Shown piece after piece: positions 8,811-39,850 of a DNA stretch of 64,000 nt. A program made the translations under genes and the position numbers. The stretch is from Escherichia coli (GTDB taxonomy: Bacteria > Pseudomonadota > Gammaproteobacteria > Enterobacterales > Enterobacteriaceae), in NCBI RefSeq assembly GCF_003334335.1, contig NZ_QOWQ01000024.1; one strand, written 5' to 3'. The notes below the pieces were generated by a model, which did not search any database, was not told the DNA's origin, and saw only the letters and a program-made list of their open reading frames with translations. Numbering within the stretch: the stretch's first letter is position 1; each line of letters opens with the position of its first letter.

Positions 8811-8890
8811 GGCCTGATAAGACGCGTGAGCGTCGCATCAGGCATCGTTCACCATTGCCGGATGCGGCGTTAACGCCTTATCCGGCCTAC
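8811..8890. repeat. BIME (pair of inverted REP elements)
   Basis: GCCTGATAAGACGCG...CGCATCAGGC and GCCGGATGCGGCG...CTTATCCGGCCTAC REP units between convergent ypfH and ypfN. Confidence 0.8.
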
Positions 8891-33760: not shown

Positions 33761-34987
33761 ATGGGAATTAACGAAATCATCATGTACATCATGATGTTCT
33801 TTATGCTGATAGCTGCCGTAGACAGGATCCTGTCGCAGTTCGGCGGTTCTGCTCGTTTCCTCGGTAAGTTCGGTAAAAGTATCGAAGGATCAGGCGGTCA
33901 GTTCGAAGAAGGCTTTATGGCAATGGGCGCACTGGGCCTGGCGATGGTCGGTATGACCGCGCTGGCACCGGTACTGGCTCACGTTCTCGGGCCGGTAATT
34001 ATTCCGGTTTACGAAATGCTCGGCGCTAACCCATCGATGTTCGCCGGAACACTGCTGGCGTGCGATATGGGCGGCTTCTTCCTCGCCAAAGAGCTGGCGG
34101 GCGGCGACGTAGCCGCGTGGCTATACTCTGGGTTAATTCTCGGGTCGATGATGGGGCCAACGATTGTGTTTTCCATTCCGGTGGCGCTCGGCATTATCGA
34201 ACCTTCTGACCGTCGTTATCTGGCGCTCGGCGTGCTGGCGGGCATTGTGACCATTCCGATTGGTTGTATCGCTGGTGGTCTGGTTGCTATGTACTCCGGT
34301 GTGCAGATCAACGGCCAGCCGGTGGAATTCACTTTCGCCCTGATCCTGATGAACATGATCCCGGTGATCATTGTTGCGATTCTGGTGGCGCTGGGGCTGA
34401 AATTCATCCCGGAAAAAATGATCAACGGCTTCCAGATCTTCGCCAAATTCCTCGTTGCATTGATCACCCTCGGTCTTGCCGCTGCGGTAGTGAAATTCCT
34501 GCTTGGCTGGGAACTGATCCCCGGTCTGGATCCTATCTTTATGGCCCCTGGCGATAAACCCGGTGAGGTGATGCGCGCCATTGAAGTTATCGGTTCTATC
34601 TCCTGCGTTCTGTTAGGGGCGTATCCGATGGTGCTGCTGCTGACTCGCTGGTTTGAAAAACCGCTGATGAGCGTCGGTAAAGTACTGAATATGAACAACA
34701 TCGCGGCAGCCGGCATGGTGGCAACGCTTGCCAACAACATCCCGATGTTCGGCATGATGAAGCAGATGGATACCCGCGGCAAAGTCATCAACTGCGCCTT
34801 CGCCGTTTCCGCTGCTTTCGCCCTGGGCGACCACTTAGGCTTCGCCGCTGCCAACATGAACGCCATGATCTTCCCGATGATTGTCGGCAAGTTGATCGGC
34901 GGCGTAACGGCGATTGGCGTGGCGATGATGCTGGTGCCAAAAGAAGACGCGACCGCGACTAAAACCGAAGCGGAGGCACAATCGTGA
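33761..34987 (+). CDS. eutH: ethanolamine permease
   Basis: 408-aa polytopic membrane protein ORF. Confidence 0.93.
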   Translation: MGINEIIMYIMMFFMLIAAVDRILSQFGGSARFLGKFGKSIEGSGGQFEEGFMAMGALGLAMVGMTALAPVLAHVLGPVIIPVYEMLGANPSMFAGTLLACDMGGFFLAKELAGGDVAAWLYSGLILGSMMGPTIVFSIPVALGIIEPSDRRYLALGVLAGIVTIPIGCIAGGLVAMYSGVQINGQPVEFTFALILMNMIPVIIVAILVALGLKFIPEKMINGFQIFAKFLVALITLGLAAAVVKFLLGWELIPGLDPIFMAPGDKPGEVMRAIEVIGSISCVLLGAYPMVLLLTRWFEKPLMSVGKVLNMNNIAAAGMVATLANNIPMFGMMKQMDTRGKVINCAFAVSAAFALGDHLGFAAANMNAMIFPMIVGKLIGGVTAIGVAMMLVPKEDATATKTEAEAQS

Positions 34988-36387
34988 ACACTCGCCAGCT
35001 ATTGAGCGTCGGTATCGATATCGGCACCACCACCACCCAGGTGATTTTCTCCCGGCTGGAGCTGGTTAACCGTGCGGCGGTGTCGCAGGTGCCGCGCTAC
35101 GAATTCATTAAACGCGAAATTAGCTGGCAAAGTCCGGTGTTCTTTACCCCTGTCGATAAACAGGGCGGTTTAAAAGAAGCGGAACTGAAAACCTTAATAC
35201 TCGAGCAATATCATGCTGCGGGTATTGAGCCGGAAAGCGTTGATTCTGGTGCCATCATCATCACCGGTGAAAGCGCGAAAACCCGCAATGCTCGCCCGGC
35301 GGTGATGGCGCTCTCTCAGTCGCTGGGCGATTTTGTCGTTGCCAGCGCCGGGCCGCACCTCGAATCCGTGATCGCCGGTCACGGAGCCGGGGCACAAACC
35401 CTTTCTGAACAACGGCTGTGTCGGGTACTGAATATCGACATCGGCGGTGGCACCGCGAACTACGCCCTGTTCGATGCCGGAAAAATCAGCGGCACTGCCT
35501 GCCTCAACGTCGGTGGTCGCCTGCTGGAAACCGACAGCCACGGGCGCGTGGTTTACGCTCATAAACCGGGGCAGATGATTGTGGATGAGTGCTTCGGTGC
35601 AGGCACCGACGCCCGTTCGCTGACCGGCGCGCAGCTGGTGCAGGTGACCCGGCGGATGGCAGAACTGATTGTCGAAGTGATTGACGGAACGCTCTCACCG
35701 CTCGCGCAGGCATTGATGCAAACCGGTTTGCTGCCCGCAGGTGTTACGCCCGAAATCATTACGCTTTCTGGCGGCGTGGGCGAATGTTATCGCCACCAGC
35801 CCGCCGACCCGTTCTGTTTTGCCGATATTGGCCCGCTGCTGGCAACTGCGCTGCATGACCATCCGCGCCTGCGTGAGATGAACGTACAGTTTCCGGCGCA
35901 AACCGTGCGCGCCACGGTGATTGGCGCGGGCGCGCATACCCTTTCGCTCTCTGGCAGCACAATCTGGCTTGAGGGCGTACAACTGCCGCTGCGCAATTTG
36001 CCGGTGGCGATCCCGATTGATGAAACGGATCTGGTGGGGGCCTGGCAACAGGCGCTGATTCAGCTGGATCTTGATCCCAAAACTGACGCGTACGTGCTGG
36101 CGCTTCCCGCCTCGCTGCCTGTGCGTTACGCCGCGGTACTGACGGTCATCAACGCGTTGGTCGATTTCGTCGCGCGTTTTCCGAATCCGCATCCCCTGCT
36201 GGTGGTGGCCGGGCAGGACTTTGGTAAAGCTCTGGGCATGTTGTTGCGCCCACAGCTACAACAACTCCCGTTGGCAGTCATTGACGAAGTGATTGTCCGC
36301 GCGGGGGACTATATCGACATTGGTACGCCTCTTTTTGGCGGATCGGTTGTGCCGGTGACGGTGAAATCACTCGCATTTCCTTCCTGA
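34984..36387 (+). CDS. eutA: ethanolamine ammonia-lyase reactivating factor
   Basis: 467-aa ORF with GTG start and a 4-nt overlap (GTGA) with the eutH stop. Confidence 0.93.
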   Translation: MNTRQLLSVGIDIGTTTTQVIFSRLELVNRAAVSQVPRYEFIKREISWQSPVFFTPVDKQGGLKEAELKTLILEQYHAAGIEPESVDSGAIIITGESAKTRNARPAVMALSQSLGDFVVASAGPHLESVIAGHGAGAQTLSEQRLCRVLNIDIGGGTANYALFDAGKISGTACLNVGGRLLETDSHGRVVYAHKPGQMIVDECFGAGTDARSLTGAQLVQVTRRMAELIVEVIDGTLSPLAQALMQTGLLPAGVTPEIITLSGGVGECYRHQPADPFCFADIGPLLATALHDHPRLREMNVQFPAQTVRATVIGAGAHTLSLSGSTIWLEGVQLPLRNLPVAIPIDETDLVGAWQQALIQLDLDPKTDAYVLALPASLPVRYAAVLTVINALVDFVARFPNPHPLLVVAGQDFGKALGMLLRPQLQQLPLAVIDEVIVRAGDYIDIGTPLFGGSVVPVTVKSLAFPS

Positions 36388-36398
36388 GGGAACGACTT

Positions 36399-37760
36399 AT
36401 GAAACTAAAGACCACATTGTTCGGCAATGTATATCAGTTTAAGGATGTAAAAGAGGTGCTGGCTAAAGCCAACGAACTGCGTTCGGGGGATGTGCTGGCG
36501 GGCGTCGCAGCGGCAAGCTCACAGGAGCGCGTGGCGGCAAAGCAGGTGTTGTCGGAAATGACCGTAGCGGACATCCGCAATAATCCGGTGATTGCCTATG
36601 AAGATGACTGCGTGACGCGGCTGATTCAGGACGATGTTAACGAAACGGCCTACAACCAGATTAAAAACTGGAGCATCAGCGAACTGCGTGAGTATGTGCT
36701 GAGCGATGAAACCAGCGTGGACGACATTGCCTTTACCCGCAAAGGGCTGACCTCGGAAGTGGTCGCGGCGGTAGCGAAGATTTGCTCCAACGCGGACCTG
36801 ATCTACGGCGCGAAGAAAATGCCGGTAATCAAAAAGGCCAATACCACCATCGGTATTCCGGGCACCTTTAGCGCCCGTTTGCAGCCAAATGACACCCGTG
36901 ACGACGTGCAAAGTATCGCCGCGCAAATCTACGAAGGGCTTTCCTTCGGGGTGGGCGATGCGGTGATCGGCGTTAACCCGGTGACTGACGACGTGGAAAA
37001 CTTAAGCCGCGTGTTGGATACCATCTATGGCGTGATCGACAAATTCAACATCCCAACTCAGGGCTGTGTACTGGCGCACGTCACCACCCAGATCGAAGCG
37101 ATCCGTCGTGGCGCACCGGGCGGGCTGATTTTCCAGAGTATCTGTGGCAGCGAAAAAGGGCTGAAAGAGTTTGGCGTGGAGCTGGCGATGCTCGACGAAG
37201 CGCGCGCAGTGGGCGCGGAGTTCAACCGTATCGCCGGGGAAAACTGCCTCTACTTCGAAACCGGACAAGGCTCTGCGCTATCCGCTGGCGCTAACTTCGG
37301 CGCAGACCAGGTAACGATGGAAGCACGTAACTACGGGCTGGCGCGTCATTACGATCCGTTTATCGTCAACACCGTGGTCGGCTTTATTGGGCCGGAGTAT
37401 CTCTACAACGACCGCCAGATTATCCGTGCTGGCTTAGAAGATCACTTTATGGGCAAGCTGAGCGGCATCTCTATGGGCTGTGACTGCTGTTATACCAACC
37501 ACGCTGACGCTGACCAGAACCTCAACGAAAACCTGATGATCCTGCTCGCCACCGCAGGCTGCAACTACATCATGGGGATGCCGCTGGGTGATGACATCAT
37601 GCTCAACTACCAGACCACCGCATTCCACGATACCGCCACTGTGCGTCAGTTACTCAACCTGCGCCCGTCACCGGAGTTTGAACGCTGGCTGGAAAGCATG
37701 GGCATTATGGCAAACGGTCGCCTGACCAAACGGGCGGGCGATCCGTCACTGTTCTTCTGA
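36399..37760 (+). CDS. eutB: ethanolamine ammonia-lyase large subunit
   Basis: 453-aa ORF, 11 nt downstream of eutA. Confidence 0.96.
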   Translation: MKLKTTLFGNVYQFKDVKEVLAKANELRSGDVLAGVAAASSQERVAAKQVLSEMTVADIRNNPVIAYEDDCVTRLIQDDVNETAYNQIKNWSISELREYVLSDETSVDDIAFTRKGLTSEVVAAVAKICSNADLIYGAKKMPVIKKANTTIGIPGTFSARLQPNDTRDDVQSIAAQIYEGLSFGVGDAVIGVNPVTDDVENLSRVLDTIYGVIDKFNIPTQGCVLAHVTTQIEAIRRGAPGGLIFQSICGSEKGLKEFGVELAMLDEARAVGAEFNRIAGENCLYFETGQGSALSAGANFGADQVTMEARNYGLARHYDPFIVNTVVGFIGPEYLYNDRQIIRAGLEDHFMGKLSGISMGCDCCYTNHADADQNLNENLMILLATAGCNYIMGMPLGDDIMLNYQTTAFHDTATVRQLLNLRPSPEFERWLESMGIMANGRLTKRAGDPSLFF

Positions 37761-37780
37761 TGACGCGGAGATAACATATC

Positions 37781-38668
37781 ATGGATCAAAAACAGATTGA
37801 AGAAATTGTACGCAGCGTGATGGCGTCAATGGGACAAGCGGCCCCCGCGCCGTCAGAAGCAAAGTGCGCCACCACCAACTGTGCGGCACCGGTGACCTCG
37901 GAAAGCTGTGCGCTGGATTTAGGTTCCGCTGAAGCAAAAGCGTGGATTGGTGTTGAAAATCCGCATCGCGCAGACGTATTAACAGAACTGCGCCGCAGCA
38001 CCGTGGCCCGCGTTTGTACCGGTCGTGCCGGTCCGCGTCCACGTACGCAGGCGCTGCTGCGTTTCCTGGCCGATCACTCTCGTTCGAAAGATACCGTACT
38101 GAAAGAAGTGCCGGAAGAGTGGGTGAAAGCGCAGGGCTTGCTGGAAGTACGCTCTGAAATTAGCGACAAAAATCTCTACCTGACTCGCCCGGATATGGGC
38201 CGCCGCCTGTGTGCAGAAGCTGTTGAAGCGCTGAAAGCGCAGTGTGTTGCCAATCCGGACGTACAGGTCGTTATTTCTGATGGCCTGTCAACTGATGCGA
38301 TCACCGTGAACTACGAAGAGATCCTGCCACCGCTGATGGCGGGCCTGAAACAGGCCGGGCTGAAAGTCGGTACACCATTCTTTGTTCGTTATGGTCGCGT
38401 GAAGATTGAAGATCAGATCGGTGAGATCCTCGGCGCGAAAGTAGTGATCCTGCTGGTGGGCGAACGTCCGGGGTTGGGTCAGTCAGAAAGCCTCTCCTGC
38501 TACGCCGTTTACTCGCCGCGTATGGCGACCACCGTTGAGGCCGATCGCACCTGTATCTCTAACATTCACCAGGGCGGCACGCCGCCGGTTGAAGCCGCAG
38601 CCGTCATTGTGGATTTGGCGAAACGTATGCTGGAGCAGAAAGCATCCGGCATCAACATGACCCGATAA
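37781..38668 (+). CDS. eutC: ethanolamine ammonia-lyase small subunit
   Basis: 295-aa ORF with an N-terminal amphipathic targeting-type extension ([19 protein letters not shown]). Confidence 0.96.
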
Positions 38669-38677
38669 GGAGGCATC

Positions 38678-39337
38678 ATGCCAGCTTTAGATTTGATTCG
38701 ACCGTCTGTCACCGCTATGCGGGTGATTGCCTCCGTTAACGCCGATTTTGCGCGTGAACTGAAATTGCCGCCGCATATTCGTAGCCTCGGTCTGATTTCT
38801 GCCGACTCCGATGACGTCACCTACATTGCCGCTGATGAAGCGACCAAGCAGGCGATGGTGGAAGTGGTGTATGGCCGCTCGCTATATGCGGGCGCTGCAC
38901 ACGGCCCGTCACCGACTGCCGGTGAAGTGCTGATTATGCTTGGTGGGCCAAACCCGGCGGAAGTGCGTGCAGGTCTGGATGCGATGATTGCGCATATTGA
39001 AAATGGCGCAGCTTTCCAGTGGGCTAATGACGCGCAAGATACGGCATTCCTGGCACATGTAGTTTCGCGTACCGGTTCTTATCTCTCATCAACCGCCGGG
39101 ATCACGCTTGGCGATCCGATGGCGTATCTGGTGGCACCGCCGCTGGAAGCGACCTATGGCATTGATGCAGCCCTGAAGTCTGCCGACGTACAGCTGGCGA
39201 CCTATGTCCCGCCACCGTCTGAAACCAACTACTCGGCAGCATTTTTAACCGGTAGCCAGGCAGCGTGTAAAGCAGCCTGTAACGCCTTTACCGATGCAGT
39301 GCTGGAAATCGCGCGTAATCCAATCCAGCGTGCGTAA
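38678..39337 (+). CDS. eutL: BMC-T tandem-domain shell protein EutL
   Basis: 219-aa ORF. Confidence 0.93.
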
Positions 39338-39349
39338 CGGAGGTTGCCG

Positions 39350-39850
39350 ATGATCAATGCACTGGGATTGCTGGAAGTGGACGGCATGGTCGCCGCGATA
39401 GATGCAGCGGATGCCATGCTCAAAGCAGCTAACGTTCGTCTGCTCAGTCACGAAGTGCTTGACCCTGGTCGCTTAACGCTGGTGGTGGAAGGCGATCTGG
39501 CGGCGTGTCGTGCGGCGCTGGACGCAGGTTGTGCTGCCGCGATGCGTACCGGGCGTGTCATCAGCCGCAAGGAGATCGGTCGGCCAGACGATGACACCCA
39601 GTGGCTGGTTACTGGCTTTAACCGCCAGCCGAAGCAACCCGTAAGGGAACCCGACGCGCCAGTTATCGTCGCGGAATCTGCTGACGAGTTGTTGGCGCTG
39701 TTAACATCAGTACGTCAGGGAATGACGGCAGGAGAAGTGGCTGCCCACTTTGGCTGGCCGCTGGAAAAAGCCAGAAATGCGCTCGAACAGCTCTTTTCTG
39801 CCGGGACGTTACGTAAACGCAGTAGTCGTTATCGTCTCAAGCCCCATTAA
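39350..39850 (+). CDS. eutK: BMC-H shell protein EutK with C-terminal extension
   Basis: ORF-track frame 39344..39850. The second ATG gives a 166-aa product beginning MINALGLLEVDGMVAAIDAADAMLKAA (BMC domain), followed by a basic C-terminal domain. Confidence 0.9.
   Translation: MINALGLLEVDGMVAAIDAADAMLKAANVRLLSHEVLDPGRLTLVVEGDLAACRAALDAGCAAAMRTGRVISRKEIGRPDDDTQWLVTGFNRQPKQPVREPDAPVIVAESADELLALLTSVRQGMTAGEVAAHFGWPLEKARNALEQLFSAGTLRKRSSRYRLKPH

Follow-up and report, generated by a model that had tools for sequence, protein, structure and literature searches.

An N-terminal encapsulation peptide on EutC in an Escherichia coli eut operon, its resemblance to the EutE peptide and its probable docking on EutQ

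We analyzed a window of 64,000 nucleotides of Escherichia coli DNA (contig NZ_QOWQ01000024.1, assembly GCF_003334335.1) and found that codons 1-19/20 of eutC, the gene for the small subunit of ethanolamine ammonia-lyase, very probably encode the encapsulation peptide (EP) of this enzyme, docking via EutQ to the shell. The peptide is a textbook case, the eut operon is of the standard E. coli kind, and the feature is already known, as are its similarity to the EutE peptide and the structural basis of that similarity. Encapsulation peptides decide which enzymes enter bacterial microcompartments, and with these compartments gut bacteria, pathogens among them, can use ethanolamine and keep the toxic acetaldehyde from leaking out. 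Moreover, EutC1-19 is in standard use in synthetic biology as a tag that brings foreign enzymes into protein shells.

The eutC gene within its operon

The eutC open reading frame spans 37781..38668 on the plus strand (295 codons, 295 aa), with a Shine-Dalgarno GGAG ~10 nt 5' of its ATG. RefSeq labels the same ORF eutC in identical E. coli genomes, and the translated protein belongs to PF05985 / NF003971: its residues 52-294 matched the NCBIfam equivalog NF003971 with 339.6 bits, for a cut-off of 230. Besides, EutC is 100% identical to the light chain (chain B) of PDB 5YSN/3ABO.

Three parts were distinguished along the plus strand of the gene. The encapsulation peptide covers residues 1-19 (37781..37837), as delimited by translation, AlphaFold2, conservation, and identity to Salmonella EutC1-19. 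A flexible, poorly conserved linker of residues 20-45 follows (37838..37915; pLDDT and conservation), and the catalytic and EutB-binding domain takes up residues 46-295 plus the stop codon (37916..38668; NCBIfam and PDB). Codons 1-20 read ATGGATCAAAAACAGATTGAAGAAATTGTACGCAGCGTGATGGCGTCAATGGGACAAGCG (37781..37840), the 19-residue peptide ending at 37837. An Rfam scan found no RNA families overlapping the peptide region. We treated an antisense ORF (37779..38042, minus strand, 87 aa) as spurious, as it overlaps the conserved eutC frame and comes without independent evidence.

Around eutC, the window is collinear with E. coli M217, the gene order being maeB, eutS P Q T D(pta) M N E J G H A B C L K R, hemF amiA. 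The eut operon is intact: all of its 17 ORFs are open, and five of the 17 genes are shell genes. Annotation places these on the plus strand, with eutS at 26063..26398, eutM and eutN at 29418..30105, and eutL and eutK at 38678..39850, directly 3' of eutC; eutB, which encodes the large subunit of ethanolamine ammonia-lyase, was likewise located by annotation (36399..37760, plus strand). The start of eutL lies 10 nt past the end of eutC. Thus, the peptide is terminal on an enzyme of a shell-gene locus, as expected of an EP under the criteria of Kinney et al. / Aussignargues et al. 2015. At the DNA level, many complete E. coli genomes, K-12 MG1655 and C600 among them, have an eutB-eutC-eutL stretch 100% identical to ours, and a match was present in 5394/5426 genomes.

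In K-12 strains of the MG1655/BW25113 type, the cryptic prophage CPZ-55 splits the eut operon (PMC11334477). Here, eutA adjoins eutB with a gap of 11 nt (junction at 36387/36399 in the region 34984..37760), so the operon is not interrupted by CPZ-55. Since the EUT1 locus is complete and uninterrupted and keeps its cargo tags, its adaptor site, and its shell genes in intact form, the operon is probably functional.

The Rfam scan also returned small RNA matches elsewhere in the window. The REP-derived nucleoid-associated RNA naRNA4 (RF02564) matched at 33599..33680 (plus strand), which falls in the 216-nt eutG-eutH gap within the operon, and at 8811..8887 on both strands, with scores of 71.8 and 92.7 bits. 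A match to the sRNA ES036 (CssrF) at 56467..56509 (minus strand) was barely over the gathering score (40.9 bits for 37.6).

The N-terminal peptide, its likeness to EutE and its distribution

In an AlphaFold2 model built from an 18-sequence enterobacterial alignment, EutC residues 3-16 are a predicted helix of moderate pLDDT (~60-69), residues 18-49 are disordered coil with no secondary structure (pLDDT ~30), and the folded domain comes after. The preliminary description had made its reading depend on helical propensity, and the predicted helix provides it. On a helical wheel, I6, I9, V10, V13, M14, and M17 fall on one side and the hydrophobic residues cluster at 80-220 degrees. The hydrophobic moment of 0.55-0.61 is the highest among the Eut N-termini, in line with the amphipathic helix of an EP.

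Conservation was computed across 12 enterobacterial orthologues (genera or species). The peptide (residues 1-19) presented a mean identity of 88% with no indels, and so did the catalytic core (residues 46-295), with the same mean identity and no indels. Mean identity in the linker (residues 20-45) was 29%, and indels were present. A flexible, poorly conserved linker between helix and catalytic domain is a further mark of encapsulation peptides, and the layout of EutC –terminal amphipathic helix, non-conserved linker, enzyme– is the canonical one for microcompartment EPs.

The linker has some particularities of its own. In E. coli, the stretch of residues 29-43 (37865..37909) contains three cysteines (C29, C34, and C43); most enterobacterial orthologues retain C43 (in ESC), and the remaining linker varies freely. 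Among the database EutC entries, P0054, P0059, P0066, P0072, and P0109 (E. coli, Klebsiella) have the N-terminal peptide intact but lack 26-40 residues inside the catalytic domain, and they are probably pseudogenes or assembly artefacts.

EutE, the acetaldehyde dehydrogenase, is translated from 30117..31520 on the plus strand, starting with MNQQDIEQVVKAVLLKMQSSD. Its N-terminal encapsulation peptide, residues 1-20 (MNQQDIEQVVKAVLLKMQSS; 30117..30176, plus strand), was delimited by translation and by alignment with EutC, and general aldehyde dehydrogenase models start matching EutE at residue 32-39. The preliminary description had claimed that the EutC peptide resembles this targeting helix and repeats its hydrophobic periodicity, to be checked by a pairwise alignment. 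When we aligned the EutE N-terminus (MNQQDIEQVVKAVLLKM) with EutC, residues 1-17 ran in register and ungapped, with 7/17 identities and a BLOSUM62 score of 43. IEEIVRSVM in EutC and IEQVVKAVL in EutE both occupy residues 6-14, which bears out the common periodicity, and the hydrophobic faces of the two helices point in the same direction (125 and 141 degrees). A published comparison of EutC1-20 and EutE1-20 gives 40% identity (PMC12487888).

The controls agree with the resemblance. Shuffled EutE peptides scored 17.7 +/- 3.8 against EutC, and the score of 43 was reached in 1/20,000 shuffles. When the EutC peptide was compared with the N-termini of the 161 window ORFs of at least 80 aa, EutE scored 41 and the runner-up 18; against 29,113 19-mers from window ORFs in all six frames, EutE was again the top non-self match (36 vs 26). 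The pattern [ILVMF]xx[ILVMF][ILVMF]xx[ILVMF][ILVMF] occurs in the first 30 residues of only EutC and EutE among the soluble Eut proteins, starting at residue 6 in each, and the membrane protein EutH matches the same hydrophobic pattern trivially. Given the shuffles and the window-wide searches, the EutC-EutE similarity is real and well beyond chance.

It is next to impossible, in our view, that the likeness reflects chance, a recent DNA duplication, or a secretion or membrane signal, despite short amphipathic helices being common and both peptides starting with M-[DN]-Q. Chance is excluded by the controls above. The 5' 60 nt of eutC and eutE are identical at only 30/60 positions, so the likeness is at the protein level and a recent duplication between the two 5' ends is ruled out. 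Finally, charged residues (E7, E8, R11) are spread throughout the EutC peptide and leave no uninterrupted hydrophobic core, which rules out a Sec/Tat signal as well as a transmembrane anchor.

To relate the extension to microcompartments, we compared EutC relatives. Searching 1.84 billion cluster representatives without a profile, we retrieved 1961 EutC relatives, of which 94 full-length ones were analyzed. With an extension of ~45 or more residues ahead of the conserved core as the definition of the long type, 55 were long-type and 39 short-type. The strict motif was found in the first 30 residues of 32/55 long-type and 0/39 short-type sequences (Fisher p = 2e-10), with examples such as IEKLVRQVV, IREIVKAVV, and LKSIIAEVL. 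Since only 32/55 long-type sequences contain the strict nine-residue motif, the real pattern is looser than the regular expression used.

Loci were compared by tblastn against a plasmid/chromid collection together with annotated neighborhoods, looking for shell genes within 10 kb. In this small sample of nine loci, partly phylogenetically clustered and taken from a plasmid/chromid database, an extension with the motif at residue 6 was present in 4/4 loci with shell genes (E. coli, Klebsiella, Listeria, and C. difficile) and absent in 5/5 loci without them (C. butyricum, Halalkalicoccus, Serratia proteamaculans, Agrobacterium, and Deinococcus). EutL/EutM/EutN-type shell genes adjoin eutC in Klebsiella, Listeria, and C. 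difficile. In the five latter loci, no shell homologues were found within 10 kb of the plain eutBC, and the first residue of EutC corresponds to E. coli residue 58-74. The sample includes contrasts within groups, namely the two clostridia and Serratia vs Klebsiella/E. coli.

Both the nine-locus sample and the cluster representatives thus present an extension that is absent from orthologues without shell genes, as expected of an EP. This is in line with a previous survey, where 123/125 EutC proteins from microcompartment loci had the extension, against 22 controls from organisms encoding no shell proteins (PMC4594438), and with the EutC of A. baumannii, which has no extension (PMC9426561). Altogether, the predicted helix with its disordered linker, the core-like conservation, and the absence of the extension without nearby shell genes support the encapsulation signal that had been attributed to EutC beforehand.

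In the Firmicutes, the EP motif of the EutE-like genes is C-terminal instead of N-terminal: IQSLVEKVL at 474/486 in Listeria (L004 12094..13554) and INLLVQKLV at 477/489 in C. difficile (L005 9145..10614). A C-terminal EP on the EUT2-type aldehyde dehydrogenase is a published difference between EUT1 and EUT2 (PMC4594438). The same motif at the other terminus suggests, from these sequences, that the motif itself is under selection rather than its position or ancestry.

Targeting activity and docking

Residues 1-19 of EutC in the window are letter-for-letter those of Salmonella EutC1-19, which moves EGFP and beta-galactosidase into Eut compartments, both native and recombinant ones (PMC3299773). 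Moreover, EutC1-20-GFP forms puncta in E. coli W3110 (PMC11334477). Localization activity, which the preliminary description had left to assays, has therefore been reported for the identical 19-mer. For EutE1-20, GFP targeting is also published, and it binds the same EutQ site as EutC1-20, more weakly (PMC12487888).

We consider it very unlikely that the extension regulates solubility or activity, or is part of the EutB-EutC interface, instead of being a targeting device. This reading could draw on the crystallized 3ANY-type constructs, from which residues 1-43 were removed (3ANY, 3AO0, and 7XRM begin at EutC residue 44). Akita et al. 2010 reportedly found the truncated enzyme to be much more soluble without loss of activity. 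However, poor solubility is what a sticky amphipathic EP would bring about. Between the peptide and the core there is a disordered linker that is not conserved; the peptide is not covered by the family model and is missing in functional EutC orthologues outside microcompartment loci. It also suffices to relocate unrelated proteins (PMC3299773), and this heterologous targeting has already largely refuted a non-targeting role.

The N-terminus of EutB lacks the hydrophobic motif, and the peptide-less EutB is thought to enter bound to EutC, by piggy-backing (PMC4594438). EutG does have a short N-terminal amphipathic stretch (residues 1-19, MQNELQTALFQAFDTLNLQ; 32357..32413), for which a signal function had been predicted. 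The K-12 peptide EutG1-19, identical to it, did not target EGFP (PMC3299773), and EutG is now thought to piggy-back (PMC12487888). In the ORF list, the EutG ORF extends to an upstream GTG at 32330, and the RefSeq start is the ATG at 32357.

For the docking partner, the EutQ ORF (26865..27566, plus strand) matched NCBIfam NF012001 with 501.8 bits. In the published work, EutC1-20 binds EutQ and EutQ1-99 with a Kd of ~6-8 uM (6.35 uM by ITC) and produces NMR shifts; I6, V10, V13, and M14 of EutC contact V93, L89, E64, R67, and Q75 of EutQ, and the EutQ mutations V93A and L89A abolish the binding (PMC12487888). The N-terminal H3/H4 helices of EutQ are the docking site of both EutC1-20 and EutE1-20 (PMC12487888). 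Models of a EutQ-peptide complex have been published as well. By residue spacing, these helices correspond in our operon to EutQ residues 67-103 (27063..27173, plus strand), equivalent to 63-99 in Salmonella and containing VAQLMEKVM. E68, R71, Q79, L93, and V97 of the window EutQ agree in identity and spacing with Salmonella E64, R67, Q75, L89, and V93, the +4 offset being taken from residue spacing and not from an alignment. Since the contact residues are kept with the same spacing, the partner site appears to be intact in this operon. On the EutC side, the EutQ-contacting I6, V10, V13, and M14 (contacts per PMC12487888) are all present on one helix face, and nothing in the window sequence contradicts the EP reading of EutC.

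Taken together, EutC residues ~3-16 would fold as a short amphipathic alpha-helix, which a floppy linker of ~25 residues would keep away from the catalytic domain. This helix would dock on the N-terminal site of EutQ, which in turn binds the shell protein EutM (PMC4827028), so that EutBC would be tethered inside the assembling Eut shell, with peptide-less EutB carried in on EutC. The EutE peptide would use the same EutQ site in the same hydrophobic register and with lower affinity, which would explain why the two peptides resemble each other. The EP helices may also self-associate and help the cargo to coalesce, and the EutC EP is reported to drive cargo condensation (PMC12339742). We infer that the mechanism described in Salmonella works in the same way in this E. 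coli operon, and regard this as safe.

The literature differs on the receptor, with EutS on one side (Choudhary et al., PMC3299773) and the EutQ adaptor of the 2025 work on the other (PMC12487888). We find it unlikely that the peptide acts mainly by direct binding to a shell protein, either EutS or the C-terminal helix of a PduA/EutM-type hexamer, and not through EutQ. EutC1-19-EGFP foci formed in recombinant E. coli with EutS alone, which was also necessary for them, and EutS-G39V abolished them (PMC3299773); in the Pdu model, EPs bind the C-terminal helices of PduA/PduJ (PMC4594438). However, ITC and NMR place EutC1-20 on EutQ1-99, the binding is lost in V93A and L89A, and the deletion of the N-terminal EutQ helices at residues 9-99 disrupts the association of shell and cargo in vivo (PMC12487888). 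EutQ also alters compartment number and cargo behavior (PMC4827028). The EutQ-adaptor and direct shell routes are not mutually exclusive.

Self-association could also be the main role of the peptide, with EutBC and EutE forming a condensate that is then enclosed by the shell and docking being secondary; we see this as a rather improbable reading. Fusing the EutC EP to mNeonGreen gives condensates and fibril-like clusters (PMC12339742), polar aggregates of EutE and EutBC arise even when no shells are present and were ascribed by the authors to the EPs (PMC12487888), and the hydrophobic register common to the EutC and EutE helices here would allow mixed bundles. Against it, the PduD and PduP EPs condense more strongly than that of EutC (PMC12339742), and the Eut compartment is reported to assemble shell-first (PMC12487888). 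Self-association alone also leaves the specific loss of binding in the EutQ point mutants unexplained. We regard direct shell binding and self-association as versions of one and the same function and not as competitors to it.

At the sequence level, EutQ H4 itself contains VAQLMEKVM (residues 90-98; 27132..27158), with the same h-x-x-h-h-x-x-h-h pattern as the EutC and EutE peptides, and H4 includes the published contact residues L93 and V97 (Salmonella L89 and V93). Based on this coincidence of motifs and on the published EutQ mutants (PMC12487888), H4 might be an internal EP-like helix on which like docks with like, and EutC, EutE, and H4 might compete in an exchangeable bundle that sets the cargo stoichiometry. 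We hold this to be doubtful. If it were true, cargo docking would be the same interaction as the self-association of EPs into condensates. That EutQ H4 shares the hydrophobic motif of the peptides it binds is a speculative and only mildly new thought. As a separate observation, EutQ residues 6-92 (26880..27140) weakly match the first 88 positions of the EutA-named NF007991 (E = 1.6e-9, far under the cut-off), which could reflect a common N-terminal module or a fused or mis-started seed sequence.

Comparison with known systems

The closest system is EutC1-19/1-20 of Salmonella enterica LT2 (Choudhary et al. 2012, PMC3299773; Sci Adv 2025, PMC12487888). Residues 1-19 are identical, the EUT1 operon includes eutQ and eutSMNLK in both, and the EutQ contact residues are the same at the +4 offset. 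Only the linker differs, being longer in Salmonella (DVPQPVAPS...) and with indels. The EutC extension of E. coli K-12 (Fan et al. 2010 as cited in PMC4594438; PMC11334477) is the same gene with no difference in the peptide, and the operon of MG1655/BW25113-type strains differs from ours in carrying CPZ-55.

Within the operon, the EutE peptide is at the same terminus as that of EutC, and shares the M-[DN]-Q start, the h-x-x-h-h-x-x-h-h-x-x-h pattern from residue 6, and the EutQ site (PMC12487888). It differs in its hydrophobic moment (0.37 vs 0.55) and lower EutQ affinity, matches EutC at 7/17 residues, and belongs to an unrelated enzyme.

The EPs of PduP, PduD, and PduE, from the 1,2-propanediol microcompartment, are likewise N-terminal amphipathic helices of ~18 residues followed by a linker. 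Jakobson et al. 2015 are said to have found that non-native signal sequences localize to the Pdu compartment via a common hydrophobic motif. Metabolosome EPs have common sequence features (PMC4594438) and all trigger condensation (PMC12339742). Unlike EutC, the Pdu EPs belong to another compartment, and their receptor model is that of the PduA/PduJ C-terminal helices and not the EutQ adaptor; Pdu loci are reported to lack a EutQ homologue (PMC4827028).

Finally, EUT2-type EutC from Listeria and C. difficile resembles that of E. coli in having an N-terminal helix whose motif starts at residue 6 (LKQMIEGIL and LKALVEQLV) and adjacent shell genes. Its core is ~40% identical, and the aldehyde dehydrogenase motif in these loci is C-terminal, unlike that of E. 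coli EutE.
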